A stretch of 64,000 nucleotides of DNA from a virus: IMG/VR virus record IMGVR_UViG_3300002835_000007, positions 25,748 through 89,747 of that record; one strand, written 5' to 3'. Of the stretch, positions 27,111 through 61,958 are shown piece after piece. The notes beneath the pieces were generated by a model that had not been told where the DNA came from, did not search any database, and worked only from the letters and a program-made list of their open reading frames with translations. The position numbers were made by a program, and so were the translations under genes. The stretch's first letter is position 1. Each line of letters begins with the position of its first letter.

Positions 27111-27971
27111 ATGAAACAAATTAAAATCGTAACAACAATTGCTAACATTGATGAAAATTCACTTAAATTTTATTTAAGAGATATCTATCAAGCAAAACCA
27201 TTCACAGTTGAAGAAGAATATGAATGTGCGTTAAGAGCACATAATGGTGATGAAAACGCTAGAGCTGAATTAATTTACCGAAACCTAAGATTTGTTGTTA
27301 CAGTTGCTAAACAATATTTAACTACAAATTTACATCTTGCTGATTTAATAAATGAGGGTAACATTGGATTGATATTGGCTGCCGATAGATTCCAACCAGA
27401 AAGAAATCTAAAGTTTATCTCTTATGCTGTTTGGTGGGTTAGAAAACTTATCGTTGAGTATATTGGTAAGAACGGTAAAATGATTAGATTACCATTCAAC
27501 AAAGTTCAATCAATGATTAAACTTAATAAAGTTTTATCTGAATTAGAACAAAAGAATGGTTACCATGTTAACGAATATGAAGCAGCAATCGAAACTAATG
27601 ATGAATCATTTAAATTGTTAGGTGAAATCAATTCAGTTAGAATGTTATCAATGGATAATCCATTGAGTGATGATGGTGATGGTTTAACGTTACATGAACT
27701 AATTAATGACCCAACAGCACAAACAACAGATTATTTAACAGTTAACTCTGATTTTAAAAGAGAAGTTAGAGAAAGTTTAAATATACTTAAACCTAATGAG
27801 AAAATAATAATTGAAGCTTTATTTGGTTTAGATGGTGGTGAACCTAAAACCTTAAAAGAGGTTAGTGAAATTGTTTTATTAACAAGAGAAAGAGTTAGAC
27901 AAATCAAAGAGAAATGTTTAATAAAACTCAGAGATAACAAAAAAATAATGGCAGCATATACTGATATTTAA
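27111..27971 (+). CDS. sigma70-family RNA polymerase sigma factor (SigA/RpoD-like)
   Basis: 286 aa; region 2 LRFVVTVAKQY...DLINEGNIGLILAADRFQPERNLKFISYAVWWVRKLI and a region 4 HTH (TLKEVSEIVLLTRERVRQIKEKCL). Confidence 0.85.
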   Translation: MKQIKIVTTIANIDENSLKFYLRDIYQAKPFTVEEEYECALRAHNGDENARAELIYRNLRFVVTVAKQYLTTNLHLADLINEGNIGLILAADRFQPERNLKFISYAVWWVRKLIVEYIGKNGKMIRLPFNKVQSMIKLNKVLSELEQKNGYHVNEYEAAIETNDESFKLLGEINSVRMLSMDNPLSDDGDGLTLHELINDPTAQTTDYLTVNSDFKREVRESLNILKPNEKIIIEALFGLDGGEPKTLKEVSEIVLLTRERVRQIKEKCLIKLRDNKKIMAAYTDI

Positions 27972-31545: not shown

Positions 31546-31618
31546 TGATAATAGGGGACGCTGAAAACCTAGACAGAGTAGGCAAATAATAAAAGTTAAA
31601 TAAAAAAAAAAGAAAAAA

Positions 31619-43711: not shown

Positions 43712-45151
43712 TTAGTTTAATTCAAATGGTTGGTTGCCAAAGGTCAATTCGACACCACCAATTCCATGTTTTAAATTCAGACCTAAAGATGATGAGTTTA
43801 TGTTTCTTATAATTTCGGTTGCATCTTCTTGGCTAACGCCAGTGATTGCAATTGTATCATTTGTTGGGTTATTAATCGTTACTTTATCTCTAATTTGACT
43901 AGACATTAATGCTTTATATAAATTAGGCAATTTGAAATATAAGTTTGAGTTTGTATTTATTTTAATTTTTAATACTTGATTACGTCTAGCTTCTTCAGCT
44001 CTTTGTCTAGCTTCTTCCTCTTCTCTTTCTATACGTCTTGCTTCTTCTCGTTCAGCTCTTTTTCTAGCCTCTTCTTCATCAGCAATTCTTTTTTCCTCTT
44101 TAGATTCTTCAGCTCTAAGTTTGTCATAAATACCAGATTCACTATAATATTTGAATTTAACAAAGTTCTTTAATAAAGGGTTTGTTGCAATTTGTTCATC
44201 ATAAGTTCTATTATATAGATTTTCCCTCATGGTACCTTCTCTTGCATCTATATCACGTGGATTTCTTTCTGCATTTCTAACTAAGTTTTCAGCATAAGTT
44301 GGTTCTCTGAAAACTTTATCACGTAATTTTGTTAAAATTCCTTTTGCGATATCATCTTCTAATGGATTTTCTACACCTAATGCTGCTATTTCTCGTTTTA
44401 CTTTTTCAGTTAAATTTCTTAATTTAAAATTATCATCAAACATACTTAAAAAAACAAATTCTGCTTTTGGACGCATACTTTGAAGTAAATCTCTTTTATC
44501 ACTATATTGACTTTGTTCATCATTAGTCATTTCATATTCACCGTATATGATATAATCTCTAAGTTTCTCGTAATAACTAGTTAATGTTTTTAAAATTCTT
44601 ACATAGTCTTTAACTTCTCTTTCAGCTAATTTACGGTCTGTAATTAAACGGTTTAATCTGTTGAAAGCTTCTTTTCTATCTCTATCGTTATCATCAGTTA
44701 TAGGTGATGAATATAACATAATAAGACGTTTACCATCATTATGTTTTTCATTAATAAATTCATTTATTGCATCACGATTAGTTGCCATTATTCTTGCAGC
44801 TTGACCACCATTTAAAGTAGGGTACATAGTAATATTAGGTCCATTAATACTAAAACTAATTTCTAAAGCATAATCGTTTTCACCCATATATTCGATACCA
44901 ACATCAGTTAATTTACCATCATGTTGAAAAGAATATCTTTCTTTAAGATATATTTTTAAAAATACATTTAATAAACCATATTGTTCTGTTTTTATTTCAT
45001 ATTTAACAGTTCTATAATCATCGCCTTCATGTGCAATAGTATAAGGTGCTGCTTGACCGATTTCTGTCATTAACATTCTTTCAAAAATGAAATATTGCTC
45101 CAACCTCAAATTAGCTTCACGTATATTTTTCTTTTTATCAAATCTTCTCAT
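43712..45151 (-). CDS. paralogue family protein, long form (479 aa) with ER/K-rich single-helix segment
   Basis: Minus-strand ORF. N-terminus MRRFDKKKNIREANLRLEQ is shared with three neighbours. Conserved core (GQAARIMATNRDAINEF...KRLIMLYSSPITDD), a C-terminal module (RENLYNRTYDEQIATNPLLKNFVKFK...SGIYDKL), then EEARKRAEREEARRIEREEEEARQRAEEARR. Confidence 0.7.
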   Translation of the reverse strand: MRRFDKKKNIREANLRLEQYFIFERMLMTEIGQAAPYTIAHEGDDYRTVKYEIKTEQYGLLNVFLKIYLKERYSFQHDGKLTDVGIEYMGENDYALEISFSINGPNITMYPTLNGGQAARIMATNRDAINEFINEKHNDGKRLIMLYSSPITDDNDRDRKEAFNRLNRLITDRKLAEREVKDYVRILKTLTSYYEKLRDYIIYGEYEMTNDEQSQYSDKRDLLQSMRPKAEFVFLSMFDDNFKLRNLTEKVKREIAALGVENPLEDDIAKGILTKLRDKVFREPTYAENLVRNAERNPRDIDAREGTMRENLYNRTYDEQIATNPLLKNFVKFKYYSESGIYDKLRAEESKEEKRIADEEEARKRAEREEARRIEREEEEARQRAEEARRNQVLKIKINTNSNLYFKLPNLYKALMSSQIRDKVTINNPTNDTIAITGVSQEDATEIIRNINSSSLGLNLKHGIGGVELTFGNQPFELN

Positions 45152-45170
45152 TGTTTTATATTAGTTTAAA

Positions 45171-46166
45171 TTAATTTATTTCTTCAATATTTTTTATTGT
45201 TTTATTATCATAATAAACAATAGCTTTATATGCCTTAAATAAATCATAACCAGTTTTCTCATTAAAATATTGAAAAAAGTTTTTAGCCTCAGTTGCTGTT
45301 ACAGATTTTAATAGGTATTCCATATATTCAATACTACCTTGTTGTTTAGGCTCTAATTTACCTTTTTGTACAAAGAAACTATCTTTATCTTCATCGAACA
45401 TTTTTATAAATGCATTGTAGAAATCTTCATCATCCAAATCCATTGAACCACGTTTTATCACGTGAATCATTAAATTTGCTTTTTTCTCATAATTTTTCAT
45501 TTCATCAGATAACAAATCAACATTAAAGATACCAGAAAGACTACGTATTCTAAATTTTTTAAAGTTATTCATTATTTTTGACCTTTTAATTTCAATATCA
45601 TAATATAAATTATAAAGTTTTTCTCTTAAATCAGTTTCTTTTTTACCACCAGTTACTGGATATGAATAAACCACTACTAATCTTTTACCTTCTTGAATAG
45701 TTTTTTCTACCACTTCTAAAATTGCTGCTCTTACAGTTGCCATAATAGAAAAAACTTTGTTAGTATTTAATTCTGGGAAAGAAACGTTACCACTTTCATC
45801 TTTAAAAACTCCAAATGAAATATAAACACCAAAGATATCATCTGGTAAATTTTCACCTTCAAAACCTAATTCTCTAATTAATGATTCAAAATCTGGGTCA
45901 AAACCAGAATACAAACTCTTTGCTTTAATACTAATAGATACAAACATGTTCCACTCTGTTGATGGGTCTTCATCAGTTATCTCATTTTCATCTTTTGGTA
46001 CTTTAAAACCAACTCTATGACCCATACTGCCCCAATCACTTACCACTTCATATGGATACCCTTTTGAATCTGCGATTTCATTCAAGGTTATCATTTCAAA
46101 TAAACGGTCTTGTTCCAATCTTAAATTGGCTTCATGTATAATTTTCTTTTTATCAAATCTTCTCAT
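45171..46166 (-). CDS. paralogue family protein, short form (331 aa)
   Basis: MRRFDKKKIIHEANLRLEQ...; core KVFSIMATVRAAILEVVEKTIQEGKRLVVVYSYPVTGG; module REKLYNLYYDIEIKRSKIMNNFKKF...SGIFNVDLL. Confidence 0.7.
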   Translation of the reverse strand: MRRFDKKKIIHEANLRLEQDRLFEMITLNEIADSKGYPYEVVSDWGSMGHRVGFKVPKDENEITDEDPSTEWNMFVSISIKAKSLYSGFDPDFESLIRELGFEGENLPDDIFGVYISFGVFKDESGNVSFPELNTNKVFSIMATVRAAILEVVEKTIQEGKRLVVVYSYPVTGGKKETDLREKLYNLYYDIEIKRSKIMNNFKKFRIRSLSGIFNVDLLSDEMKNYEKKANLMIHVIKRGSMDLDDEDFYNAFIKMFDEDKDSFFVQKGKLEPKQQGSIEYMEYLLKSVTATEAKNFFQYFNEKTGYDLFKAYKAIVYYDNKTIKNIEEIN

Positions 46167-46172
46167 ATTGTT

Positions 46173-47168
46173 TTAATTATTTAAATAAGGGTCATTTACA
46201 TCAGAAATAATTTTATTACCATGTTTTATTTCAACTCCATTATTAACATCACTTTTAAGTTCTGCATTAAATTTTTCTCTAAATTTATTTAAAAATGTTT
46301 TAACACTTTCTTTTGATAACATTCTTATACTAGAATAGATGTATGTTCTACCATTAACTTCAGAAAAGTTTACATTCAAATTTGGATAAGTATTGTTATC
46401 ATTTAACACATCTAAATATTTCCAAAATTTATTATATAATTCTTCATCACCATCTTTAAAAATTGTAACTTCAAAAGGTTTTGAATCCAATGTTTTAACA
46501 TTAGCATGAACACTATCATTAGGTTTTAATAAATCAGCATTATAAATCCCACTATACCCCCCATAATTGAATTTTTTGAATCGACTTAATATTTTTGACC
46601 TTTTAATTTCCATATCGAAATATGTATTATAAAGTTTTTCTCTTAAATAACCATCTTTACCACCAGATAATGGATATGACCATATTATTAATAATTGTTT
46701 ATTATCAGCAAGTTGTCTCAAAATAAATTCATTAATTGCTGCTTTTACAGTTCCCATAATAGACAAAACTCTTCTACCTTTTAATTCTGGGTAATGCGTA
46801 GTATCATATTCATCAATCACACCAAATGATACTTCAATACCAAATATGTTATTTGGTAAATTGTTAAACGTTTCAGTATCGTTATCGATTATTCTAAGTA
46901 TAAAGTTTTCAAGACCTAATTTATTTCTACCATCAACACTTATATACATATTCCATTCTGTTGACGGGTCTATAGCAGTTATCTCATTTTCATCTTTTGG
47001 TACTTTAAAACTTACTTTATATCCATTAGAACCCCAATCTTTTAATATTTCATATGGATATCCTTTTGAATCTGCGATTTCATTTAAGTCTATCATTTCA
47101 AATAAACGGTTAGCTTCTAATCTCAAGTTAGCTTCAAATATATTTTTCTTTTTATCAAATTTTCTCAT
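46173..47168 (-). CDS. paralogue family protein, short form (331 aa)
   Basis: MRKFDKKKNIFEANLRLEA...; core RVLSIMGTVKAAINEFILRQLADNKQLLIIWSYPLSGG; module REKLYNTYFDMEIKRSKILSRFKKF...SGIYNADLL. Confidence 0.7.
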   Translation of the reverse strand: MRKFDKKKNIFEANLRLEANRLFEMIDLNEIADSKGYPYEILKDWGSNGYKVSFKVPKDENEITAIDPSTEWNMYISVDGRNKLGLENFILRIIDNDTETFNNLPNNIFGIEVSFGVIDEYDTTHYPELKGRRVLSIMGTVKAAINEFILRQLADNKQLLIIWSYPLSGGKDGYLREKLYNTYFDMEIKRSKILSRFKKFNYGGYSGIYNADLLKPNDSVHANVKTLDSKPFEVTIFKDGDEELYNKFWKYLDVLNDNNTYPNLNVNFSEVNGRTYIYSSIRMLSKESVKTFLNKFREKFNAELKSDVNNGVEIKHGNKIISDVNDPYLNN

Positions 47169-47177
47169 TGTTTTATT

Positions 47178-48617
47178 TTAATTATTTGGAACGTCAAATG
47201 GTTGACCCCCATAAGTTATTTCTACATGGTCTTGACCATTATTAAAGTCAGAGTTTAAAGCTGCTCTTATTTCTCTAACTATGCTTTCAGCAACATTTCT
47301 ATCAATATCTTTTATCTCTATAGAATTACCAATAGTACTTAAAAGATGGTTTAAAGATGGACGATTCCTCTTTAAACTATTTAAAACACTAATTAATCTA
47401 CTGTTATCTGAATTTAAATCATATAAACTAGATTGTTCACCTATTTTAATTATTAACTTTTGAGCGTTTAATGCATTTGTTATATCGGCATCAATTTCTG
47501 CATTAGTCTTTACTGGTTTGTCTTCACCAACAGCTTTAAGATAATCATAGATACCTATCTCACCACCTTTCTTGAATTTCACAAAGTTTTTTAATAATGA
47601 GTTTGACGCAATTTGTTCATCAAAATATTTATTGTATAAACGTTCTCTCATAGAACTTTCATCTGCTGGTAAAGCTGTTGATGATACTGGAGCGTTAGCA
47701 ACTAAATTTTGAATATAATCTACATCGGTTGAATCTATTTTATCACGTAAAAAACGTAATACTGAAAAATAAGTTTTAATGTTAATAATATCTTCATTGT
47801 CACCCTCTTGAGTTTGTGTTGCAGCTTCTCTTTTTGCTTGTTTTAGTAAATTATCTAAATTATATTGTTTATCATATAAACATAACAAGATTCCTTTTTT
47901 TGAACCAGCAATATTAAGATTATTAATAAAAGTCTGAGTATTATTCTCATATTTTTCACTTTCATCACCAGTCATTTTAGGACGATATTCACCGTCAATT
48001 AATATTGCTCTAAAAATAATTTCATAATAATAATCCAATAATTTTTGAATTTTAACATAATTTCTAACCTCTCTTTCAGAAACTGGTCTATTATTCGAAA
48101 CATAACCTTTTAAAGTGTCTATAGCCCTTTCTCTAGCCTTATCATTATTATCTTCAACTGGAGATGAAAATACCATAATTAGACGATAACCTTTAGCTGC
48201 CATCTCATCAATATATTCACTAGTAGCTTTAGTGTTTGTCGCCATGATTTGTGCTGCTTGAGAGTTTATTGTACCGTAAGTACTAATATTACTCTTTTCA
48301 GTTGTTTTAACACCAAAACTAATACCAATACAATAATCTTTTTCATCCATTTCTTCAATACCAACACGGTCAAATCTATATTCTAGTCTGTTAAAATCAC
48401 TTTTAAAATATTTAGAAATAGTTAATTCCATAGTTACTAAACCATATTGTTCTGTTTTTATTTCATATCTAACGTTTCTATAACCGTCATCTTCATATGA
48501 AATAGTATAAGGTGCTGCTTCACCAATTTCTGTCATTAACATTCTTTCAAAAACAAATTCTTGCTCTAATCTCAAATTGGCTTCACGTATAATCTTCTTT
48601 TTGTCAAATCTTCTCAT
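47178..48617 (-). CDS. paralogue family protein, long form (479 aa)
   Basis: MRRFDKKKIIREANLRLEQEFVFERMLMTEIGEAAPYTI... is near-identical at the 5' nucleotide level to 43712..45151. Core SQAAQIMATNTKATSEY...YRLIMVFSSPVEDN; module RERLYNKYFDEQIASNSLLKNFVKFK...IGIYDYL. Confidence 0.7.
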   Translation of the reverse strand: MRRFDKKKIIREANLRLEQEFVFERMLMTEIGEAAPYTISYEDDGYRNVRYEIKTEQYGLVTMELTISKYFKSDFNRLEYRFDRVGIEEMDEKDYCIGISFGVKTTEKSNISTYGTINSQAAQIMATNTKATSEYIDEMAAKGYRLIMVFSSPVEDNNDKARERAIDTLKGYVSNNRPVSEREVRNYVKIQKLLDYYYEIIFRAILIDGEYRPKMTGDESEKYENNTQTFINNLNIAGSKKGILLCLYDKQYNLDNLLKQAKREAATQTQEGDNEDIINIKTYFSVLRFLRDKIDSTDVDYIQNLVANAPVSSTALPADESSMRERLYNKYFDEQIASNSLLKNFVKFKKGGEIGIYDYLKAVGEDKPVKTNAEIDADITNALNAQKLIIKIGEQSSLYDLNSDNSRLISVLNSLKRNRPSLNHLLSTIGNSIEIKDIDRNVAESIVREIRAALNSDFNNGQDHVEITYGGQPFDVPNN

Positions 48618-51557: not shown

Positions 51558-52270
51558 CTATACTATGTCACATGTATACATACATAACAATTTTTATATG
51601 ACAATACTAATATCATCATATAACTTATACGATAATTTAATAGTAATATAACACCAGTGTACCACATACCCATATACTGTGGGGAACGTAGTTCCCATCA
51701 AGTACAACTTGTACAGATTTCTGTACAAGGTATGGATATGACGTACTTATTTGTACCTACATTAGCACGCAAATATTATGTGGCGATTTTGAGCCAAAAA
51801 ACGGGTTTTTGTGGTAAAAAGTGGTAAATAGTGTAAGTAAATGGTACAAAGAATTAGTAAATGGCGTTTTTTACCTAAAAATAGGGTATGGACATAGATT
51901 TTCCATAGGGGAAAATAAGTTAAAGAAACCTTTATGCCCTTTAAAAACACGCAACCACTTTTTCAGCCGAAATTTACGGACACAATGTTTCACGTGGAAC
52001 ATTACCACAAAAACGTGCATAGTAAGTCAGCCCAGCCCAGTAAAAATATTGGCACAAGTTATTGCCCCTACTTAAAAAAGTAAGGGTATAAATTTATGCA
52101 CCAAATCTCGTGGAAAGGGTGTGCAAATATAATATGTCAAATTTCACTTTGTCATAAGCGTTAAAATTAATATTTAAATTTCAGTATACAAATGTAAGCA
52201 TAATATTTTAATCTACCAAACTTTTTTGCAATTTATAATCATTCTAAATAAGGGTTGTTAAAAAAAGTTT
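51558..52270. other. ~1-kb non-coding region with palindromes and iteron-like direct repeats (candidate replication origin / regulatory hub)
   Basis: No convincing ORF. Perfect palindromes GTACAACTTGTAC (~51702) and TGTACACGTGTACA (~52425). TGGGGAACGTAGTTCCCA inverted repeat. Direct repeats GTGGTAAAAA / GTGGTAAATA / GTAAGTAAATGGTAC / AGTAAATGGCG (51800-51870). Repeated GGTATGGAYAT. Locally higher GC than the flanks. Confidence 0.5.
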
Positions 52271-52360
52271 AGGGTAGGTTGGAGTCTACTCTTCTGAAAC
52301 TTGTTAAGTCAGCACGTATCTCTTTCAAACCTACAATACAAATGTAGGTATAATAAATTT
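52271..52360 (+). repeat. ~90-bp intergenic repeat, copy A (GGTTGGAGTCTACTCTTC...GCACGTATC...CTACAATACAAATGTAG..ATAATAAATT)
   Basis: Shares the GGAGTCTACTCTT core, a CACGTAT motif, the palindrome CCTACAATACAAATGTAGG and an ATAATAAATT box with copies at 53786, 54991 and 59546. Confidence 0.65.
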
Positions 52361-52469
52361 AATATCCTAATAAAAAAAATTTTTTTATTAATTATTTTTT
52401 TATTATATTACACACGCACATATGTACACGTGTACATTTATAGAATAGTGGTATTAAAATTTTTTTTAA

Positions 52470-52540
52470 TTATTTTTTATAAAGTAGTAGGATATTAAAA
52501 AAGTTTATATATCTTTGTAGGGTATTAATCAATTAAAACA
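52470..52540 (+). promoter_or_regulatory. promoter of a distinct class: upstream GTAGTAGGATATTAAAAAAG, -7 TATCTTTG, downstream GTATTAATCAATTAAAAC
   Basis: -7 box TATCTTTG at 52509-52516 with no -33 TTTG. The same extended pattern occurs at 53295-53355, 53930-53985 and 60385-60445. Confidence 0.45.
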
Positions 52541-52547
52541 ATTACAT

Positions 52548-53264
52548 ATGAGTTTGGTATTTAAACACAAAGACACTATTCAAGTTGTTACGTTAGCAAC
52601 AACAAAGAATGACAAAATTGAATCTAATAAGAAACGTAAGATAGTACAAACGTACACGTTTTCTTATAAGCAATTTGAGTTAGTTAAGAAACGTTTTGAA
52701 ACGAATGAAGCAATTGGCATGAAAAACTTTTTTAGTAACGCAGATAGCAATTGTTTGGATTGTCCTTTCAATTCTTATGGCAAATGTTATACACATAAAT
52801 TTAATCAATACGTTGGTTTTATTTCATCTTTAAAAAGTGTATTTAGAAAGTTTGGTAGTATAGACAATATACCTAACTTTGATATTTCAATGTTAGACAA
52901 AGTTACCAAAATGAGCAAAGGTACTTATGTACGTTTCGGAACGTATGGTGAACCAAGTTTGCACCCAATTGAATTAATTCGTTCTATGGTAAAAGTATGC
53001 GACAATTGGACGGGTTATACGCACCAATGGAATAAAACTAATTTAGGTGATTATTTTATGGCAAGTACGCATACAACAAGTGAGCAACAAAGTGCTGAAA
53101 TTTTAGGTTATAGGTCGTTTGTAGCAACTGAAAATAAGTTAGGGTATGTTGGTTGCCCAGCGAGTAAAGAAATGGGTTATAAGTCGAGTTGTAGTGCTTG
53201 TAATTTATGTAGTGGAAAGTTAGGAACTAAAACAAATAAAAGTATAGAAATTATCCTACATTAA
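52548..53264 (+). CDS. hypothetical Cys-rich protein
   Basis: 238 aa; several CxxC pairs (CLDCP...CSACNLCSG). Confidence 0.45.
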   Translation: MSLVFKHKDTIQVVTLATTKNDKIESNKKRKIVQTYTFSYKQFELVKKRFETNEAIGMKNFFSNADSNCLDCPFNSYGKCYTHKFNQYVGFISSLKSVFRKFGSIDNIPNFDISMLDKVTKMSKGTYVRFGTYGEPSLHPIELIRSMVKVCDNWTGYTHQWNKTNLGDYFMASTHTTSEQQSAEILGYRSFVATENKLGYVGCPASKEMGYKSSCSACNLCSGKLGTKTNKSIEIILH

Positions 53265-53294
53265 TGTAGGGTAATTTTTTTTAAAACTTTTTAT

Positions 53295-53355
53295 ATAAAG
53301 TAGTAGGAAATTAAAAAAGAATGTTTATATTTGTAATGTATTAATCAATTAAATA
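53295..53355 (+). promoter_or_regulatory. promoter, GGAAATTAAAAAA / TATATTTG / GTATTAATCAAT class
   Basis: AGTAGGAAATTAAAAAAG 53301-53318; TATATTTG 53326-53333; GTATTAATCAATTAAAT downstream; ATG 53365. Confidence 0.45.
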
Positions 53356-53364
53356 AAATAAATT

Positions 53365-53724
53365 ATGGGACGTTATTATTCGGGTGACATTGAAGGAAAG
53401 TTTTGGTTTGCACTACAATCTTCGGATTGTGCAGATAGGTTTGGTGTAAGTGGACAACAACCAAACATATTAGAGTACTATTACGAAGAAAGTGATTTAG
53501 AAGGTGTGGAAGAAGAAATTGCTAATATTGAGCAAAGTTTGGGTGAACAAATAAAAGTCATAGAAGACTTTTTTAGAACAAACAATGGTTACAATGATAG
53601 TATGTTGGCAGAGGCAAATATTACCACAAGTGAATTAAGTGATTACGCAGATTTATGTTTGGGTATACAAATAAGGGATTGTATAAAAGAAAATGGTGCT
53701 TGTCGTTTTGACGCAGAATGTTAA
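53365..53724 (+). CDS. hypothetical acidic protein
   Basis: 119 aa ORF followed by terminator 53733-53765. Confidence 0.45.
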   Translation: MGRYYSGDIEGKFWFALQSSDCADRFGVSGQQPNILEYYYEESDLEGVEEEIANIEQSLGEQIKVIEDFFRTNNGYNDSMLAEANITTSELSDYADLCLGIQIRDCIKENGACRFDAEC

Positions 53725-53732
53725 AAAATTAT

Positions 53733-53765
53733 CCCCTACTAAAATAGTAGGGGTTTTTGTTTTTA
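53733..53765 (+). terminator. rho-independent terminator
   Basis: CCCCTACTAAAATAGTAGGGG followed by TTTTT. Confidence 0.85.
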
Positions 53766-53785
53766 ATTTTTATTTTTTTTATATG

Positions 53786-53880
53786 GACGTGACGGAGTCT
53801 AGTCTTCCATTCCCACGGCACGTATCGATTATCAATCATCTACAATACAAATGTAGAAATAATAAATTAGATATGCAAGA
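53786..53880 (+). repeat. ~90-bp intergenic repeat, copy B
   Basis: GACGGAGTCTAGTCTTCCATTCCCACGGCACGTATCG...TCTACAATACAAATGTAGAAATAATAAATT; follows terminator 53733-53765. Confidence 0.65.
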
Positions 53881-53933
53881 AAAAAGTGATTAAAAATAAA
53901 AATAATTTTTTTTTCATTATTTTATATAAAAAG

Positions 53934-53985
53934 TTTGGAAATTAAAAAAAAAGCGTTACATTTGTAATGTATTAATAATCTAAAA
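53934..53985 (+). promoter_or_regulatory. promoter, TTTGGAAATTAAAAAAAAG / TACATTTG / GTATTAATAATC class
   Basis: TTTG 53934-53937; TACATTTG 53957-53964; ATG 53996. Confidence 0.5.
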
Positions 53986-53995
53986 AACAAATAAG

Positions 53996-54880
53996 ATGAA
54001 CACACAAGAAAAAGTACAAGAAATTTTAAAGTCTAATGGATTAGATTTTACAATTGAAAAAGCACCTATGATGGCTTTAAATTCTAATGGTATCTATGTA
54101 CCAAGTGAGTATTTCGGTTTGATTAATTCAAGCACGAATGAAGTGATTAACACCGTAAAAGAGGGTTATACGGTATCTCAAAACGAAGAGGTTGTTGAGT
54201 TGGTTATGCGTGGAATTGAACCTTTCGGAAACGATATTCAAGTTACCAAAGGTGGTGCGTTGAATGGTGGACGCAAAGTGTTTTTACAACTTGCTATCAA
54301 TGGTGACGGCAAAGTTAATGGTGACACTATTAAGAAGTATATTACTATCGTGGATAGTAATGACGGCAGTACGGGTCTATCGGTAGGTATTGGTGATTTA
54401 ACTATGAGTTGCAGTAACCAATTTTTTAAGTTCTACAAAAGTGGACAATCTAAATTTCGTCATACGGCAAGTTTGGAACGTAGAATCAAAGAAATTCCTT
54501 TCCTTATTGAAACGGCTTTATCTGAATCATTAAGACAAATTGAAATCTACAATCAATTTGCAAGTACGCAAGTTTCACGTGATTTGGCACACAAAATGGT
54601 TAAACACTTATTAGGGTTTGACAAAGTGTATACAAGTGTAAAAGACTTGTCAGATAAGTCTACACGTAGTATAAACAAAATGGATGCTTTATACAACGCT
54701 ATTGAACGTGAAATGAATAGCAAAGGTGACACGTTGTGGGGTTTACATAGTGGAATTACATATTACACTACACACGAATTGTCAGCACCAAAACGTGACA
54801 ATGGTAAAGTTGAAACTTTGTTACAAGGAACGGGTTACAATATGAACCAAGCAAGTTTGGAATTTGCTTTAAATTACTAA
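53996..54880 (+). CDS. hypothetical protein (possibly DUF932 / phage-plasmid TIGR03299-like)
   Basis: 294 aa; N-terminal LKSNGLDFTIEKAPMMA...; the family call is from memory only. Confidence 0.4.
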   Translation: MNTQEKVQEILKSNGLDFTIEKAPMMALNSNGIYVPSEYFGLINSSTNEVINTVKEGYTVSQNEEVVELVMRGIEPFGNDIQVTKGGALNGGRKVFLQLAINGDGKVNGDTIKKYITIVDSNDGSTGLSVGIGDLTMSCSNQFFKFYKSGQSKFRHTASLERRIKEIPFLIETALSESLRQIEIYNQFASTQVSRDLAHKMVKHLLGFDKVYTSVKDLSDKSTRSINKMDALYNAIEREMNSKGDTLWGLHSGITYYTTHELSAPKRDNGKVETLLQGTGYNMNQASLEFALNY

Positions 54881-54888
54881 CAAAGTTA

Positions 54889-54913
54889 CAAGGGGGTTAT
54901 CAACACCCCCTTG
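54889..54913 (+). terminator. hairpin (probable terminator)
   Basis: CAAGGGGGTTATCAACACCCCCTTG immediately after the stop of 53996..54880. Confidence 0.6.
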
Positions 54914-54990
54914 TAAATAACTTTATTTGCAAAGGTCGAATTTATTTTGTACCTTTGCAAATTTTTTTCTTATATGGTAAAAAAAATATA

Positions 54991-55078
54991 AGGTAGGTTG
55001 GAGTCTACTCTTTCAAGATTTCCCTCGACCCGTTTCGGTTATCACCACCAACAAAACAAAGGTAGGGATAATATATTT
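54991..55078 (+). repeat. ~90-bp intergenic repeat, copy C (more diverged)
   Basis: AGGTAGGTTGGAGTCTACTCTTTC...CCCGTTTCGG...AACAAAGGTAGGGATAATATATTT; follows hairpin 54889-54913. Confidence 0.55.
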
Positions 55079-55130
55079 AAAAAACAAACTTTTGTTGCAT
55101 AAAAAAAAATAATTATTTTCTCACAAAATA

Positions 55131-55161
55131 GTTGCAGAATTAAAAATAATGTTTATCTTTG
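55131..55161 (+). promoter_or_regulatory. promoter (-7 TATCTTTG 55154-55161, weak -33 GTTG)
   Basis: GCAGAATTAAAAATAATG upstream element; ATG 55186. Confidence 0.45.
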
Positions 55162-55185
55162 TAGGGAACAATAAAACAAAACACA

Positions 55186-55725
55186 ATGAAAAATTTAAAT
55201 GACGTAAGATTAATGGCAGAAACATTAATGACAAAACAATTCACGTTTAACACGTACCATGGGGTTTATACATTGAGTGGTGAACAATTAGGTTATACGT
55301 TTAAGTTTGATAGTGCAAAACGTAGATTTGGTTGCTGTAGTTATGGTAAAAAAACTATTGGTTTATCTATGCCACTATGTAATGAAAATTTAGATAAAAT
55401 AGACACAAAGATTACTGACACTATGTTGCACGAATTGGCACACGCATTTTGTGTTCACGTGTATGGTGTAAGGGACGGAAGAGGTCATGGGTACAATTGG
55501 CAACATATTGCAAAACAAATTGGTTGTGACGCTAAAAGATGTTTTAGTAGTGATAGTGTTAATTTACCTAAATCAAAATATACTTTGTTATGTGAGAGTT
55601 GTGGTAAAGAAACACCAAAACACAAAGTGATTAGAAAGACTTATGCTTGTGCTAAATGTTGTGATGAACATAACAACGGAAAATTCAGTTATGATTATCA
55701 ATTAAAATTAGTTACGAATTATTAA
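55186..55725 (+). CDS. SprT-like zinc metalloprotease-domain protein with C-terminal zinc ribbon
   Basis: 179 aa; HExxH in an SprT context (TMLHELAHAFCVHVYG...GHGYNWQ) and CESCGKE...CAKCC. Confidence 0.55.
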   Translation: MKNLNDVRLMAETLMTKQFTFNTYHGVYTLSGEQLGYTFKFDSAKRRFGCCSYGKKTIGLSMPLCNENLDKIDTKITDTMLHELAHAFCVHVYGVRDGRGHGYNWQHIAKQIGCDAKRCFSSDSVNLPKSKYTLLCESCGKETPKHKVIRKTYACAKCCDEHNNGKFSYDYQLKLVTNY

Positions 55726-55763
55726 AAAAGATTTGCATAAGTGAAAACTTATGCTTATCTTTG
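55725..55763 (+). repeat. 40-bp repeated promoter element, copy 1: AAAAAGATTTG-[GCATAAGTGAAAACTTATGC]-TTATCTTTG
   Basis: -33 TTTG 55732-55735; perfect 7-bp-stem hairpin 55735-55754 inside the 20-nt spacer; -7 TATCTTTG 55756-55763. Identical copies at 58855-58894 and 60115-60155. Confidence 0.7.
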
Positions 55764-55785
55764 ATTAAACAAAACAATAAAAGTT

Positions 55786-56016
55786 ATGAAAGATTTATTT
55801 GAAACACCAGAGTTGATACCAAACGAAGTACAAGCAATATTGGAATCATTTGATGAGGATAGTGGAAACACCTATTTTGAGTTAGATAGGATATTGAGTG
55901 AGATAGAACCATTGGGTTATACCTTTGATTACTATTTGGACGCAGAACCATATGGGTTAAGACCTATGGGTATGGAATTGGAAGAGTTAGAGGGTTGGGA
56001 ACATATTAATGATTAA
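55786..56016 (+). CDS. hypothetical acidic protein
   Basis: 76 aa ORF; promoter with a hairpin-containing spacer upstream. Confidence 0.4.
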   Translation: MKDLFETPELIPNEVQAILESFDEDSGNTYFELDRILSEIEPLGYTFDYYLDAEPYGLRPMGMELEELEGWEHIND

Positions 56017-56278
56017 TGTTATGAAAATAGTTAAAAGTTGTTTACGTAGTACTGACGATATAAAATACGAGAGGGTATTAGAAACAAGTACACACATTTA
56101 TTTTTATCCAATGGGCGACCACAAAGATAAAAAATTATTTGCTAAAAAACATAATAGGGTTATGAATCTAATTGCCGAGGGTGATTATGTTGATAATGAG
56201 ATAATGGAAATTTTTGCAAGTGGGAATTATAGTTGGGTAAGTAAGAAATTTGAAAATAAATTTGGAAAATTGAAATAG
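56009..56278 (+). CDS. hypothetical protein
   Basis: 89 aa ORF. Confidence 0.4.
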   Translation: MINVMKIVKSCLRSTDDIKYERVLETSTHIYFYPMGDHKDKKLFAKKHNRVMNLIAEGDYVDNEIMEIFASGNYSWVSKKFENKFGKLK

Positions 56279-56292
56279 TTTATTTATCTTTG
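56260..56292 (+). promoter_or_regulatory. Bacteroidota-type promoter (TTTG / 21 nt / TATCTTTG)
   Basis: TTTG 56260-56263; TATCTTTG 56285-56292; ATG 56317. Confidence 0.5.
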
Positions 56293-56316
56293 TTGAAACA
56301 ATTAAAAACAAATATT

Positions 56317-57156
56317 ATGAGAAATGAATTTAACAATTTAGTAGAAACTTTAAAACGTTGGGACTTGTATCAAATAGGTGATGAAGTTGATATGGCGTTG
56401 ACAGATTTGTCTGATAAGATAGCAGAAGTTGAAAAACGTATTGAATGTGTTAAACGTACTAATGTTGATAGTCACGAGATACTATTTACTAATCAAGTTA
56501 AATTGGAAGAAAGTATTGGGTATGATAATGTAGAGATACTACAAAGAAGTGTTACTGATATTAACATTGCATTAGATTTAACCATTAATGAACCAATAGA
56601 GTGTAATTGGTATGGTTTATTCGAAGAACCAAAAGAAGAAATAGAGGATAAATTTAAACCTAGAAGTGTAGCAGAATATGTTGCAACATTACCCAAGGAA
56701 GAACCAAAGGTATTAATACCAAAAGATAGTATTGTTGAGTGGAAAGAAACAAGACAATATTATAGTGTTAATGGTGGTGCTAAAGCGAGAGTAACCGAAG
56801 ACTATACAACGGAACACGAAAGTAACGATAATTGTGTTAAAGTTGAATGGTTGGATGAAAAAGCAAATAACCAACAAAATGGTGGCTATTTTAGAGATAT
56901 GTTTAAAGAAGACTTTGAGTTACCAAGTGTACCAACTTTTTTATGTTATTCAGATGATAACCATAATATTGTAAAAGACATTATTGCGAAGTTAAAAGTA
57001 ATTGATGTTGACGGAGAAACTATGCAGTATATCTTAAAGGAAGTTGGTATGGAAGACCAAATGTTAAGGCAACTAATAATGAGTAGTACTGAAAGTAATA
57101 CAAAAGATTTGTTGGAAGAGAAACGAATTTTGAGTAACCAAGGTAAATTAGTTTAA
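56317..57156 (+). CDS. hypothetical protein
   Basis: Track start 56290 is a TTG inside the -7 box; ATG at 56317 (MRNEFNNLVETLKRW...). Confidence 0.45.
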   Translation: MRNEFNNLVETLKRWDLYQIGDEVDMALTDLSDKIAEVEKRIECVKRTNVDSHEILFTNQVKLEESIGYDNVEILQRSVTDINIALDLTINEPIECNWYGLFEEPKEEIEDKFKPRSVAEYVATLPKEEPKVLIPKDSIVEWKETRQYYSVNGGAKARVTEDYTTEHESNDNCVKVEWLDEKANNQQNGGYFRDMFKEDFELPSVPTFLCYSDDNHNIVKDIIAKLKVIDVDGETMQYILKEVGMEDQMLRQLIMSSTESNTKDLLEEKRILSNQGKLV

Positions 57157-57169
57157 AATAAAATTAAAA

Positions 57170-57216
57170 AGATTGGATGAATGTTATTGTTTATCCAATC
57201 TTTATTCTTATATTTG
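57170..57216 (+). promoter_or_regulatory. hairpin (AGATTGGAT...ATCCAATCT) followed by -7 TATATTTG
   Basis: 9-bp stem 57170-57178/57193-57201; TATATTTG 57209-57216; preceded by AAAAAGATTGG. Confidence 0.45.
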
Positions 57217-57246
57217 TTAAACAAACCAATTAAAACTTTAGAACCT

Positions 57247-57441
57247 ATGGATTATAGTATGTATTTATTTAGCAACCTTATCAAATTTTATGACAAGGAA
57301 TTTGCTGACGCTTGTTATGACGAGCAATGGGATGATTTGCCAAGTTTATATGATGAGTATGACAAAAGCAAATTCAATGTTGACACCAAAGGTGAATACG
57401 AATGTATGGAAAATTTCTTAAAAGATAAGTACAACAAATAA
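57247..57441 (+). CDS. small acidic protein
   Basis: Track start 57181 is inside a hairpin; ATG at 57247 (MDYSMYLFSNLIKFYDKEF...). Confidence 0.35.
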   Translation: MDYSMYLFSNLIKFYDKEFADACYDEQWDDLPSLYDEYDKSKFNVDTKGEYECMENFLKDKYNK

Positions 57442-57444
57442 TTT

Positions 57445-57495
57445 AATAATAATCCAATTTATATTTGGTAGATTGGATTATTATTCTTATATTTG
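57445..57495 (+). repeat. hairpin-promoter element, copy 1 (AATAATCCAAT-TTATATTTGGTAG-ATTGGATTATT + TATATTTG)
   Basis: 11-bp stem 57448-57458/57472-57482 with the -33 TTTG (57465-57468) in the loop; -7 at 57488-57495. Near-identical copy at 61908-61958. Confidence 0.65.
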
Positions 57496-57517
57496 TTAAA
57501 CATTAAAAATAAAGATT

Positions 57518-57955
57518 ATGGGAAGTTTTAGTTGGAACAAAGCAGATGAATTAACGAACACTGAAAATGTTGCTTATGGTACACCTTTTAAATTCTTAAT
57601 ACCAAAAGAATTTGGTGGTGGGTTTATCAAAGATTACTATCAAGATTATGGTGAACTAGGAACAAAAGAAATTAGTGGTGAACCTAAATACGATATGTAT
57701 GAACTATTAGCATTTTGGAACAATGCAGAGGATTTGAAATTTGAGGGTGAATATCCATTGATGAAACAAATTGATGAACATACTGATTACAATAGAAGTA
57801 AAGGTATTGACATTGGTTGTTACGATGAACAAATATTAAAACTTAAATACCCTTTAAAATTAGTTTCAGCTTCATTCAAAGGTACGTATGAAGATTTGGA
57901 GACTTGTAGTTTAGGTGACCCCGACCAAGGGTTTTTTCCAAGAAGAAGAAATTAA
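57518..57955 (+). CDS. hypothetical protein
   Basis: 145 aa ORF. Confidence 0.45.
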   Translation: MGSFSWNKADELTNTENVAYGTPFKFLIPKEFGGGFIKDYYQDYGELGTKEISGEPKYDMYELLAFWNNAEDLKFEGEYPLMKQIDEHTDYNRSKGIDIGCYDEQILKLKYPLKLVSASFKGTYEDLETCSLGDPDQGFFPRRRN

Positions 57956-57969
57956 AAATAATTTAAAAA

Positions 57970-58015
57970 TAACCTATCAAATATTTGGTAGGTTATTTTA
58001 TTTTTACTATATTTG
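57970..58015 (+). promoter_or_regulatory. hairpin with -33 in loop (TAACCTA-TCAAATATTTGG-TAGGTTA) + -7 TATATTTG
   Basis: TTTG 57985-57988; TATATTTG 58008-58015; ATG 58039. Confidence 0.5.
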
Positions 58016-58038
58016 TATTGTAATCAAAAACAAACATT

Positions 58039-58455
58039 ATGAAAACTAAAAGAGAATTAGCAGAAAAACAAATTGAGTTACAAAACAGAGTTAATGCAGT
58101 AGCAAGTATTAATATTGTAACGTGTGGAAATTGTGGTAGTGTATTATTACACGATAGAATGGATTCTGAAATTGAATGTGCGTGTTGCAAGTCAGTAATG
58201 GATTTATCTGATTGTCCCGATTTATGGTATGAGGGTTGCCAAAATAATAGTGAGTTTGACGAAGAAGAAATCTTAACAAAACAAATTAGTGTTGAAGACG
58301 TTGTAAGGGTTGCTATGGATTTAAAAATGAATCCGAGTATTGCAGAGATTAACGAAGTATTAAAATACTACGATAGTGAAGCAGAGGAAGACAAAACGGC
58401 AACGTGGGAATTGATTGTGGAGAACTTATTGTATAATTGTGTTGCACCAAAATAA
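58039..58455 (+). CDS. hypothetical protein with Cys4 zinc-ribbon motif
   Basis: 138 aa; CGNCGS...CACC. Confidence 0.45.
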   Translation: MKTKRELAEKQIELQNRVNAVASINIVTCGNCGSVLLHDRMDSEIECACCKSVMDLSDCPDLWYEGCQNNSEFDEEEILTKQISVEDVVRVAMDLKMNPSIAEINEVLKYYDSEAEEDKTATWELIVENLLYNCVAPK

Positions 58456-58477
58456 TTTAAAATAAAATAACAAAAGA

Positions 58478-58509
58478 TTTGGATAATCGAAATATTATCC
58501 TTATCTTTG
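58478..58509 (+). promoter_or_regulatory. promoter AAAAGATTTG-[GGATAATCGAAATATTATCC]-TTATCTTTG
   Basis: TTTG 58478-58481; 7-bp-stem hairpin 58481-58500 in the spacer; TATCTTTG 58502-58509; ATG 58537. Confidence 0.5.
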
Positions 58510-58536
58510 TTTCACAAACAAATTAAAACTAATATT

Positions 58537-58845
58537 ATGAATGACATCGCAAAATTAAAAAGTTTAATATCTGAAGTTAAAGATATTGATAGACCAAAGT
58601 TTGACAGAGTATACAATGAAGTACTTTTTCCAAGAATGGTTAACGTGGCAGAAAAATGGAAAAAAAATGAATTGTCCATTGGTAGTTATCAAAATGATGA
58701 TACACACAACAAAGTAGTTGGTGAATTATTTGATGATAGCAATCTACAAAGATTGGTTGAAACCAAAATGAAACCTTACCTTGAAGAAAAAGGATTCAAA
58801 GTTGTTATTTGCAGTCCGAGTTATTATGTTTATATTCGTTGGTAA
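58537..58845 (+). CDS. hypothetical protein
   Basis: Track start 58507 is a TTG inside the -7 box; ATG at 58537 (MNDIAKLKSLISEV...). Confidence 0.4.
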   Translation: MNDIAKLKSLISEVKDIDRPKFDRVYNEVLFPRMVNVAEKWKKNELSIGSYQNDDTHNKVVGELFDDSNLQRLVETKMKPYLEEKGFKVVICSPSYYVYIRW

Positions 58846-58854
58846 AATAAATTA

Positions 58855-58894
58855 AAAAAAGATTTGCATAAGTGAAAACTTATGCTTATCTTTG
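58855..58894 (+). repeat. 40-bp repeated promoter element, copy 2
   Basis: AAAAAAAGATTTGCATAAGTGAAAACTTATGCTTATCTTTG; -33 58863-58866; hairpin 58866-58885; -7 58887-58894. Confidence 0.7.
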
Positions 58895-58920
58895 TTTCAC
58901 AAACAAAAACAATAAGAGTT

Positions 58921-59184
58921 ATGGCAACAATGACAAAGACAGAATTTTTCGCAAAGTATGGTGGTGGATTGGTAGTGGCAGAAGAGGATAGTGTAGAATA
59001 TGGTGACTATCTTTTTTTACACCCCGAAGAAATTGATAGGGTGAAAGAATTTGATACGGAAGAGTATCAAGTTGTATCGGTACACGAAACCGAGGACGGA
59101 GAAGACATCGTTGATATGGGCGACATTGACTATGGTACACAACCATACAAATATGGTTATTTTGTAATTGAAAAAGGAATTTAG
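58921..59184 (+). CDS. small acidic protein
   Basis: Track start 58882 is inside the repeated hairpin; ATG at 58921 (MATMTKTEFFAKYGG...). Confidence 0.4.
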   Translation: MATMTKTEFFAKYGGGLVVAEEDSVEYGDYLFLHPEEIDRVKEFDTEEYQVVSVHETEDGEDIVDMGDIDYGTQPYKYGYFVIEKGI

Positions 59185-59187
59185 ATT

Positions 59188-59514
59188 ATGACACCAAGTG
59201 AAGTAAGAAACAAGTTAGAACTATTAGGGTTAATAGTGAATAACAAAGCAGTATCTTTTACAAAGTTTAAGAGTATTGCAGACGCACACCAATATGGTAG
59301 CAGAGGGAATAAAATCTACATAGTATTTTATGGACACCCAAAAGAAAATATGTTTGCGTTTTATCCCCCACAAACGACTAAAAAAGAGTCTATGGATATA
59401 GCATACCAATATTATCTTACAATGGTTGAGAACGCAGATATAAACGAATTTACCTATGGTAACGTTTGTTGGACTGATAGGGGTTATCCATTAAACTATC
59501 GCAAAGTGGGGTGA
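59188..59514 (+). CDS. hypothetical protein
   Basis: 108 aa ORF; the stop lies inside the terminator hairpin. Confidence 0.45.
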   Translation: MTPSEVRNKLELLGLIVNNKAVSFTKFKSIADAHQYGSRGNKIYIVFYGHPKENMFAFYPPQTTKKESMDIAYQYYLTMVENADINEFTYGNVCWTDRGYPLNYRKVG

Positions 59515-59527
59515 CCCACTTTTTTTG
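59505..59527 (+). terminator. rho-independent terminator
   Basis: GTGGGGTGACCCAC followed by TTTTTTT; overlaps the stop codon. Confidence 0.8.
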
Positions 59528-59545
59528 TGCGTGTAAAAAAATAAA

Positions 59546-59636
59546 AGGCACGTTGGAGTCTACTCTTCCATTCCCACGGCACGTCTAACTTGACAATACA
59601 AAGATTGCAATAATAATTGACATATGCAAGTAAAAT
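59546..59636 (+). repeat. ~90-bp intergenic repeat, copy D
   Basis: GGCACGTTGGAGTCTACTCTTCCATTCCCACGGCACGTCT...GACAATACAAAGATTGCAATAATAATTGACATATGCAAG; follows terminator 59505-59527. The tail TATGCAAG is shared with copy B. Confidence 0.65.
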
Positions 59637-59673: not shown

Positions 59674-59704
59674 GTTGTGGGAATGGAAATAATTACTATC
59701 TTTG
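59674..59704 (+). promoter_or_regulatory. promoter (-7 TATCTTTG 59697-59704; weak -33 GTTG; upstream GGGAATGGAAATAAT)
   Basis: ATG at 59729. Confidence 0.45.
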
Positions 59705-59728: not shown

Positions 59729-60106
59729 ATGAAACGAATTAAAGTTAGATTCAATTTAGGTAGAGGTAAGAACTTTATGAAATGGAAAGTTCAATACCCT
59801 AATGGTGAAGTTGAATATTATGACCCTACAAGCACTCAATTGGTGATGGTGAATTGTCAGTTAGGCAACCATAAGAAAGTCGCTGAAAAGATTTATAATG
59901 GGGGTGAAAAAGTTGTGTGTGCGTGGGTATTGTGTGAATCAATTGTGATTAACACAAATAAGTTTTTACAACTTGATACCTATTGTCATAGAATTAAATA
60001 CAATCCAAGGGTGCAACCAAATTGGTTGTTAAATGGTGAAGTAGTGGATAATCAAAAGTATGAACAAATTGGTAGTGTTGATTTTGGTTTATATAAAATA
60101 ATATAA
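59729..60106 (+). CDS. hypothetical protein
   Basis: 125 aa ORF. Confidence 0.45.
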   Translation: MKRIKVRFNLGRGKNFMKWKVQYPNGEVEYYDPTSTQLVMVNCQLGNHKKVAEKIYNGGEKVVCAWVLCESIVINTNKFLQLDTYCHRIKYNPRVQPNWLLNGEVVDNQKYEQIGSVDFGLYKII

Positions 60107-60114: not shown

Positions 60115-60155
60115 TAAAAAAGATTTGCATAAGTGAAAACTTATGCTTATCTTTG
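60115..60155 (+). repeat. 40-bp repeated promoter element, copy 3
   Basis: AAAAAAGATTTGCATAAGTGAAAACTTATGCTTATCTTTG; -33 60124-60127; hairpin 60127-60146; -7 60148-60155; ATG 60178. Confidence 0.7.
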
Positions 60156-61907: not shown

Positions 61908-61958
61908 TAAAATAATCCAATTTATATTTGGTAGATTGGATTATTATTCTTATCTTTG
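61908..61958 (+). repeat. hairpin-promoter element, copy 2 (near-identical to 57445-57495)
   Basis: AATAATCCAATTTATATTTGGTAGATTGGATTATTATTCTTATCTTTG; -33 61927-61930; -7 61951-61958; ATG 61982. Confidence 0.65.

Follow-up and report, generated by a model that had tools for sequence, protein, structure and literature searches.

A phage-restricted family of predicted structured small-RNA genes, present in four intergenic copies in a Bacteroidetes-type phage

Four intergenic repeats of ~90 bp in a 64,000-nt stretch of the virus record IMGVR_UViG_3300002835_000007 (hereafter the window, whose plus strand is the strand as given) are best read as independent genes for a small RNA; neither an operator role nor an origin from a mobile element is supported. 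They belong to a real, structured and phage-restricted small-RNA gene family that was previously unannotated: the RNA is absent from Rfam and is passed over in the annotation of the sole isolate genome that carries it. A first reading of the letters alone (the original prediction) had offered three identities for the repeats, namely transcribed small RNAs, arrays of operators bound by a phage regulator, or what is left of a miniature mobile element. The first of these is supported by the present analysis, but on the minus strand and not as noted. Phage-encoded small RNAs are known, and few families of them have been defined; to our knowledge there is none for phages of Flavobacteriia and other Bacteroidetes, bacteria with a large part in the carbon turnover of seas and fresh waters. 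With the covariance model and the strand assignment reported here the RNA can be annotated, and several "empty" intergenic regions and divergent promoters of such genomes are explained.

The motif GGAGTCTA[C/G]TCTT occurs at exactly four sites in the window, on the plus strand at 52281, 53794, 55000 and 59555, against 0.59 expected by chance, and the four regions around it can be aligned across ~90 nt. A covariance model (R1) was built from relatives and run without filters over all 64 kb. It returned the same four places (50.4 to 71 bits, E 7e-21 to 4e-14; Table 1), and beyond these the next match in the entire window scored just 13.7 bits. The motif count and the model thus both give exactly four copies, which are spaced 1.2-4.6 kb apart. 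The starts first assigned to them (52271, 53786, 54991 and 59546) were right within about 10 nt, as was the extent of ~90 bp.

The window is that of a Bacteroidetes-type phage, with TTTG-N19-21-TAnnTTTG promoters ahead of its genes (repeat families D1-D6; 65 relaxed plus-strand matches). TAnnTTTG is the -7 box of flavobacterial sigma-A promoters and lies at -12 to -5 (PMC9723704). When the repeats are read on the minus strand, all four have TACATTTG, TACCTTTG or AATCTTTG as a -7 region with TTG or TTAG exactly 20 nt upstream; the -33 G and the -7 box are at identical positions in the four copies, and their spacing is that of the phage's plus-strand promoters. The TTG-N20-TAnnTTTG arrangement is likewise present in about 100 relatives. 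Each copy has a host-type Bacteroidetes sigma-A promoter at a fixed upstream distance and, since this minus-strand promoter is found in all four copies, the units are read as minus-strand transcription units. Because the -7 box ends at -5, the predicted start of transcription is the conserved G at the 5' end of the first hairpin of the RNA. This changes the identity of several parts of the repeat. The AT box, at first likened to a TATA-type element, is the spacer of the promoter, and the ATACAAA inverted repeat, perfect only in the first two copies, is its -7 box TAnnTTTG and not a part of the RNA. The GC-rich head is indeed conserved, and is the conserved 3' part of the minus-strand RNA. A CACGT motif, expected in every copy, is missing from copy 3 only. 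Similarly, terminator-like hairpins precede copies 2, 3 and 4, while copy 1 lies ~190 nt past the preceding gene, and the distance from a copy to the next plus-strand promoter measures roughly 40-130 nt rather than 60-110 nt.

Relatives were gathered by exact-pattern scans of IMG/VR and of one genome per species, followed by a search with the model. The gathered loci contain 146 model matches, 128 of them distinct, on about 70 uncultured viral contigs (roughly 18-360 kb), four contigs from metagenome-assembled genomes (MAGs) and one isolate, the Cbastvirus Tenacibaculum phage Larrie (ON950054), whose copies lie in unannotated intergenic DNA at about 16.9-17.0, 18.76-18.84 and 19.39-19.47 kb. 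Larrie is the one cultured carrier found and was also the only result of a short-query blastn; a megablast of the 8-kb region gave no close cultured-phage relative. In an exact scan of 185,579 species genomes an 18-mer had only four matches, all in MAG contigs. Since the 18-mer is nearly absent from species genomes, the RNA is phage-restricted and is neither a copy nor a perfect complement of a host RNA. The number of genes reaches nine in the last 16.5 kb of the 47.8-kb contig IMGVR_UViG_3300044530_001678 (L189, 31289-47813), and there are six copies in 4.7 kb of locus L173 and five in L186. The element is kept in many related genomes, forming a large phage-restricted family that is clustered in regions of small genes with their own promoters. 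RNA genes were often seen to cluster near contig ends (L002, L018, L189 and many other loci), which could mark the leading end of the genome during entry or be due to assembly breaks at repeats.

From 5' to 3' the RNA is composed of a hairpin P1, the junction GGG, a second hairpin P2, the nearly invariant AGNGUAGACUCCRAC and a U-run. The outer stem of P1 is GUN/NAC and covaries (GUC/GAC, GUU/AAC, GUA/UAC, GAC/GUC); beyond it are a small internal loop (RR opposite G) and an inner stem that is often GNRA-capped. P2 is closed by GNRA, UNCG, GACAA or CUAACAA loops. Of the window copies only copy 3 keeps the GGG junction; the others have GUG, as do a minority of relatives. The conserved block reads R-A-G-N-G-U-A-G-A-C-U-C-C-R-A-C, in which AG and GUAGACUCC are 96-100% conserved, and the junction GGG and AGNG-UAGACUCC-RAC are nearly invariant across the family. 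When CUCC was left free (NNNN), the scan found no family member with another sequence and returned only unrelated coding sequences. The tail is of the CCUAC or CACGUC type and is usually followed by the U-run or by an AU-rich palindrome. Two drawings of the invariant block are possible: as a small hairpin P3, (G)AG-NGUAGA-CU(C), which is a perfect 7-bp hairpin in one subclass, or as part of a terminator hairpin (GUAG-ACUCCAAC-CUAC or UAGAC-UCCGACAC-GUCUA), of which it makes up the 5' strand and the 8-nt loop. In three relatives (Table 1) UAGACUCC occurs twice in one RNA, flanking an inserted hairpin (GUUGUGCAAC...GUUGC), which may reflect either a second site for binding or an insertion that duplicated 8 nt.

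The proposed helices were examined in a MAFFT alignment that was not fitted to the model and in a model-fitted alignment of the 128 distinct matches. In the MAFFT alignment 83% of the cells in the specified helices are paired, compared with 68% in shuffles, and the covariation score is 0.359 compared with 0.145; none of 500 shuffles reached this score, and controls in which the helices were slid gave at most 0.082. The model-fitted alignment gave 0.395 compared with 0.143. At one position of P2 the base pair is C-G in 67 and U-A in 53 sequences, and at one position of P1 it is A-U in 35, C-G in 33 and U-A in 28. Because the helices were first derived by eye, an all-against-all mutual-information scan of the 2,295 column pairs of the MAFFT alignment was also run; P1 and P2 account for the two best pairs and for most of the top-ranked ones. 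These results show that P1 and P2 keep pairing through compensatory changes. The outcome set out beforehand as refuting the original prediction, copies that are not kept in relatives and do not covary, was not observed. Since G.U pairs in the helices exceed A.C pairs (103 vs 28), the transcribed strand is the minus strand. A plus-strand reading of the element was rejected, as the G.U pairs would become A.C and the sole promoter is on the minus strand. Outside P1 and P2, neither the covariation nor the mutual-information scan found long-range covariation, a tertiary contact or a pseudoknot. Two further structures were tried and discarded: a closing helix of GGG with CUCC, or of ACGUG with CACGU, shows no covariation, and in a P1 internal loop of the k-turn or C/D-box type the would-be G1b and A2b positions are variable, with Watson-Crick covariation. 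U59 is somewhat more frequent alongside CACGU tails (7/24, vs 2/46 with CCUAC), a difference that is at most suggestive.

The compensatory changes also bear on the idea that the repeats act as DNA, either as repeated operators of a phage regulator or as relics of miniature transposable elements. The repeats are indeed dispersed and intergenic, copies 1, 2 and 4 have CACGT-containing half-sites, a separate palindrome TGTACACGTGTACA lies near copy 1, and UAGACUCC is duplicated around the inserted hairpin in the three relatives mentioned above. Nevertheless, we find a DNA-level feature hardly credible, since it is pairing and not sequence that the changes preserve, and since the excess of G.U over A.C pairs is specific to one strand. 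Moreover, the copies have no terminal inverted repeats or target-site duplications in common (only A/T runs flank them as inverted repeats), and every copy is a complete promoter-RNA unit with the promoter at a fixed distance.

All four window units oppose the flanking plus-strand genes, and strong bidirectional terminators stand 30-70 nt beyond them. Across the family the downstream gene is co-oriented with the RNA in 24 cases and opposite in 20, and co-directional downstream genes have their own promoter, located after the U-run of the RNA. The mixed orientation and the separate downstream promoters argue strongly against a leader, a riboswitch or an element of a 3' untranslated region, and make a nut/put-like role unlikely. 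More generally, we consider it improbable that the element acts in cis on transcription, be it through nut/put-like antitermination or as an attenuator, an insulator or a primer-forming origin transcript. Such an action would suit its position directly downstream of a promoter, the A/T-rich DNA that follows it, the GNRA-like pentaloops (GACAA) of some P2 hairpins, as in boxB, and the two mutually exclusive 3' foldings that can be drawn; as an attenuator, P3 (RAG-NGUAGA-CUC) would compete with the GUAG/CUAC terminator. It is difficult to reconcile with terminators so close to units that oppose their neighbours, with an orientation that is random across the family, or with co-directional genes that have their own promoters, and 4-9 origins or nut sites within a few kb are implausible. 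Genes for SprT-like metalloproteases and DUF932 proteins recur near RNA genes in 7-8 unrelated contigs, at positions that are not fixed.

For the function of the family, we tentatively favor a reading in which each repeat is an independent minus-strand gene for a structured RNA of ~60-75 nt that acts in trans by binding a conserved partner. Host RNA polymerase would transcribe the genes once the DNA enters the cell, and the RNA would begin at the first base of P1 and end at the 3' hairpin and U-run. Acting in trans, it would use P1 and P2 as a scaffold and present the 3' invariant block, in or beside the terminal hairpin, together with GGG as a binding surface. The partner would be highly conserved, probably abundant and bound stoichiometrically; it would most likely be a protein, making the RNA a decoy or titrating RNA, with multiple gene copies providing dosage. 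Several features are consistent with this proposal. The strict conservation of 12 nt of the block in 128 distinct copies from otherwise unrelated phages argues for a strongly constrained partner, and the GNRA and UNCG loop caps together with the conserved junction nucleotides suggest a defined fold, more than just a seed for pairing. Immediate-early expression would fit the host-type promoters and the location among small genes with their own promoters, and the amplification to 4-9 copies per genome supports a role for dosage. The identity of the partner would reveal what these phages need in quantity at the start of infection, and Tenacibaculum phage Larrie is a cultured carrier.

Alternatively, the RNA could be a base-pairing small RNA in which the C-rich UAGACUCCRAC, exposed in the terminator loop, is the seed for a GGAG-containing RNA and P1 and P2 only stabilise the molecule. 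The most conserved stretch is short and C-rich and lies, in about half of the members, within the 8-nt loop of the 3' hairpin, and every one of the paralogous genes has a promoter and a terminator to itself. In addition, the 12-mer GUAGACUCCAAC (or GUAGACUCCAA) can pair without interruption over 11 positions of E. coli 16S rRNA (1306-1316, in the 5' strand of helix 43); this duplex has -18.7 kcal/mol compared with -11.9 for the next rRNA site, and is equalled by only 1.4% of shuffled 12-mers, a nominally significant result for E. coli. We nonetheless regard a base-pairing RNA as rather unlikely. No target site was located in the window, and an mRNA target would not remain invariant across such diverse phages. 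Shine-Dalgarno sequences are not found in this phage's genes and are largely absent from Bacteroidetes (PMC7797042). Class C members lock ACUCCAA in a perfect 7-bp hairpin, and a conserved GGG and conserved helix junctions are unusual in a small RNA that is only a seed. As for helix 43, it closes within ~10 nt of transcription, leaving scant opportunity for an antisense RNA, and two Algibacter (Flavobacteriaceae) 16S sequences, from the one paper found with it, have the variant CGGAGUCUGC...GACUCCG, with which the majority CUCCAAC pairs over 9 bp only, no better than chance. The helix 43 match was moreover noticed post hoc, and the A and G variants of the block both occur within a single phage, so that helix 43 as a target or a model is a weak lead.

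A compact RNA with stable tetraloop caps and invariant junction nucleotides, probably expressed early from many gene copies, might instead bind a small molecule, with P1, P2, GGG and the block forming a pocket; it would then be an aptamer sponge, for example for an immune nucleotide signal, or an orphan riboswitch. The neighborhoods are rich in SprT-like and DUF932 genes, and the phage has NAD-salvage and Sir2 genes. We think an aptamer very improbable: there is no match to an Rfam riboswitch, no tertiary contact or pseudoknot supported by covariation and no conserved gene association, and the idea would rest on analogy. Finally, it is conceivable, if quite unlikely, that the RNA is a counter-defence or takeover device of Bacteroidetes phages, which would flood the cell with a small folded RNA from several gene copies directly upon DNA entry and sequester a conserved host component on the UAGACUCC surface. 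That component might be a protein of defence or one that binds RNA, a nucleotide signal of immunity, or a part of the ribosome, reached through mimicry of, or pairing with, 16S helix 43. If so, the family would represent a decoy class unrelated to CRISPR-repeat mimics.

Several points weigh against the trans-acting, partner-binding RNA that we favor. We infer transcription, the RNA ends and action in trans. RNAalifold gave no consensus structure on the MAFFT seed alignment, and single-sequence folds of copies 1, 3 and 4 are as stable as shuffles (z -0.9 to +0.3), the z of -3.27 for copy 2 being owed to the downstream terminator hairpin included in the fold. Because single folds do not rise above shuffles, the structural case rests on covariation in helices of 3-6 bp. 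Both drawings of the conserved block are beyond a covariation test, since the block never varies, and by minimum-energy folding the local 3' hairpin with CUCC in its loop forms in no more than about half of the members. Of the four window copies, only copy 2 lacks a U-run after the 3' hairpin. Finally, clustering of 1,026 flanking open reading frames (ORFs) revealed no universal neighbor family, and no neighbor family is common to more than 14 loci.

Table 1. Predicted RNA units and other mapped features (window positions unless a locus of a relative is named)
Feature	Position	Strand	Details
Copy 1, promoter	52339..52370	-	TTAG-N20-TACATTTG (-33 and -7 boxes)
Copy 1, predicted RNA	52260..52334	-	~75 nt; covariance model 69.2 bits, E 2.5e-20
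Copy 1, parts	52278-52334	-	P1 52316-52334; GUG 52313-52315; P2 52294-52312; invariant AAGAGUAGACUCCAAC 52278-52293
Copy 1, 3' end	52260-52266	-	tail CCUACCC, then U7 (52260-52266)
Copy 2, promoter	53848..53879	-	CTTG-N20-TACATTTG
Copy 2, predicted RNA	53780..53843	-	covariance model 50.4 bits, E 4e-14
Copy 2, parts	53791-53843	-	P1 53822-53843; GUG 53819-53821; P2 53807-53818 (CCGU-GGGA-AUGG); motif AAGACUAGACUCCGUC 53791-53806; tail ACGUCCAUAUA
Copy 3, promoter	55057..55088	-	TTTG-N20-TACCTTTG
Copy 3, predicted RNA	54979..55052	-	~74 nt; best model match in the window, 71 bits, E 7e-21
Copy 3, parts	54979-55052	-	P1 55032-55052; GGG 55029-55031; P2 55013-55028; invariant AAGAGUAGACUCCAAC 54997-55012; U8 54979-54986
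Copy 4, promoter	59599..59630	-	CTTG-N20-AATCTTTG; weaker -7 box (AAtcTTTG)
Copy 4, predicted RNA	59535..59594	-	~60 nt; covariance model 52.6 bits, E 8e-15
Copy 4, parts	59568-59594	-	short P1 59583-59594 (GUC-AAGUUA-GAC); GUG 59580-59582; P2 59568-59579 (same as copy 2)
Copy 4, 3' part	59535-59567	-	invariant AAGAGUAGACUCCAAC 59552-59567, then UUUUAUUUUUUU to 59535
Terminator-like hairpins preceding copies 2, 3, 4	53733-53753, 54886-54916, 59503-59522		
Window neighbors	53996-54880 (DUF932), 55186-55725 (SprT-like)		also phrog_2554 and L5 gp82-like
Relatives with doubled UAGACUCC	L174 2857-2948	-	
	L177 256-340	+	
	L187 3712-3796	+	
Loci of SprT-like / DUF932 recurrence			L005, L007, L017, L039, L040, L047; L008, L040, L062, L116, L139, L195
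Terminator-promoter fusions	55729-55763, 58860-58894, 60121-60155, 57450-57495, 61913-61958		
Phage enzyme and sigma-factor genes	77-1312, 5016-5780, 6811-7857, 16741-18726, 27111-27971		

In Table 1 the start site of copy 1 is taken from the position of its -7 box. Copy 3 on its own folds at minimum energy into P1, P2 and the 3' hairpin AAG.GUAG-ACUCCAAC-CUACCUU, followed by AUAUUUUUUUU, which is exactly the family structure. Copy 2 departs from the otherwise invariant block at a single base (G to C in AAGAC); its 3' end is uncertain, and the transcript may extend to the bidirectional terminator at 53733-53753. The P2 12-mer of copy 4, GTGGGAATGGAA, recurs in inverse orientation ~90 nt away at 59675-59688 (inverted repeat I1, 82% over 22 nt), within the spacer of the plus-strand promoter of the gene at 59729-60106, and this repeat resembles a degenerate, incomplete copy of the RNA gene.

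Three other features were seen around copy 1. A fifth minus-strand promoter of the Bacteroidetes type, TTTGGTAGATTAAAATATTATGCTTACATTTG, has its last G at 52189, just downstream of the copy, and may drive a different small RNA with GCACACCCUUUCC that ends at a hairpin near 52064-52088 (region 52060-52220); in Larrie (L096, about 6790-6800 and 6960-6975) the similar stretches ACACCCUUUCC and ACACCCUUUUC follow minus-strand promoters. The motif TTTATAATCATTCTAAATAAGG at 52232-52253 adjoins the copy, and related CATTCTAAAT and TTCTAGATAAG strings stand beside family members in unrelated contigs (L014, L034, L123, L164), so that this type of motif may be a second conserved element travelling with the RNA genes. 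The palindrome near copy 1 is perfect over 14 bp (52427-52440) and lies between the copy 1 promoter and the next plus-strand promoter; it is found only at this copy and is a candidate operator.

Elsewhere in the window, many small genes are preceded by compact terminator-promoter fusions, in which a terminator-like hairpin (e.g. GCATAAGTGAAAACTTATGC) sits between the -33 TTTG and the -7 TATCTTTG. The only Rfam match in the window at the gathering threshold is DUF805b RNA (RF02914) at 31551-31584 on the plus strand, which scores 35.8 bits (cutoff 35.6). Products encoded by the phage include an NAPRTase-family enzyme, a Sir2-family protein, a PRPP synthetase, an RNase II/R-type exoribonuclease, which is full-length with cold-shock, RNB and S1 domains, and a sigma-70-family factor, as well as two calcineurin-like phosphoesterases and two AAA ATPases. 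The sole block of minus-strand genes (43712-48617) consists of two paralogous ORF pairs in the order 479, 331, 331 and 479 amino acids; its DNA repeats are 75-88% identical and it has no Pfam match.

The family was compared with known RNAs and systems. Searches of Rfam 15, both at the gathering threshold and with E allowed up to 10, placed no match on the elements, either in the window or in 18 related loci (~30 copies), ARAGORN found no tRNA or tmRNA genes in the window, and the literature held no description of the sequence or of relevant small RNAs of flavobacterial phages. Membership in three further groups was rejected. For the Racr RNA anti-CRISPRs, the 18-mer scan, limited to exact matches, found just the four MAG contigs; for type III antitoxins (ToxI-like), the copies are 1.2-4.6 kb apart and not tandem, and their neighbors are phrog_2554, DUF932, SprT-like and L5 gp82-like genes; for riboswitches and cis leaders, there is no constant co-oriented downstream gene in the window or the family. 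Two-hairpin RNAs just downstream of early phage promoters are known from HK022 put and lambda nut, and some P2 loops are GNRA-type like boxB. However, put and nut act in cis, whereas the units described here end at U-runs or terminators, lie in either orientation and number 4-9 per genome.

LhrC1-5 of Listeria, RsaE/RoxS and the streptococcal csRNAs are ~60-150 nt long; several paralogous genes encode them, every one equipped with a promoter and an intrinsic terminator, and conservation is highest in a C-rich stretch that may lie in the terminator loop. The phage RNA resembles them in being short and multi-copy, with paralogues that share a C-rich conserved element. It differs in its conserved junction nucleotides, its two covarying scaffold helices and its restriction to phages, while the LhrC, RsaE and csRNA families are chromosomal, pair with Shine-Dalgarno regions and have no sequence or structural homology to it. 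CsrB/RsmZ and 6S RNA are abundant, structured and stoichiometric, and present a conserved motif to a protein, with copies or repeats raising their capacity; unlike these, the phage RNA has neither GGA-loop repeats nor a 6S-like open-promoter mimic, it matches neither in Rfam, and two motif copies in one RNA are found only in three relatives. Racr RNAs are small and phage-encoded, have their own promoters in early or anti-defence regions and are proposed decoys for host proteins, but a Racr is a recognisable copy of a host CRISPR repeat, a form that the phage RNA does not have. The family is a member of none of these groups; it is closest in its working to LhrC, RsaE and the csRNAs and to CsrB and 6S RNA, and in its genomic context it is close to Racr.

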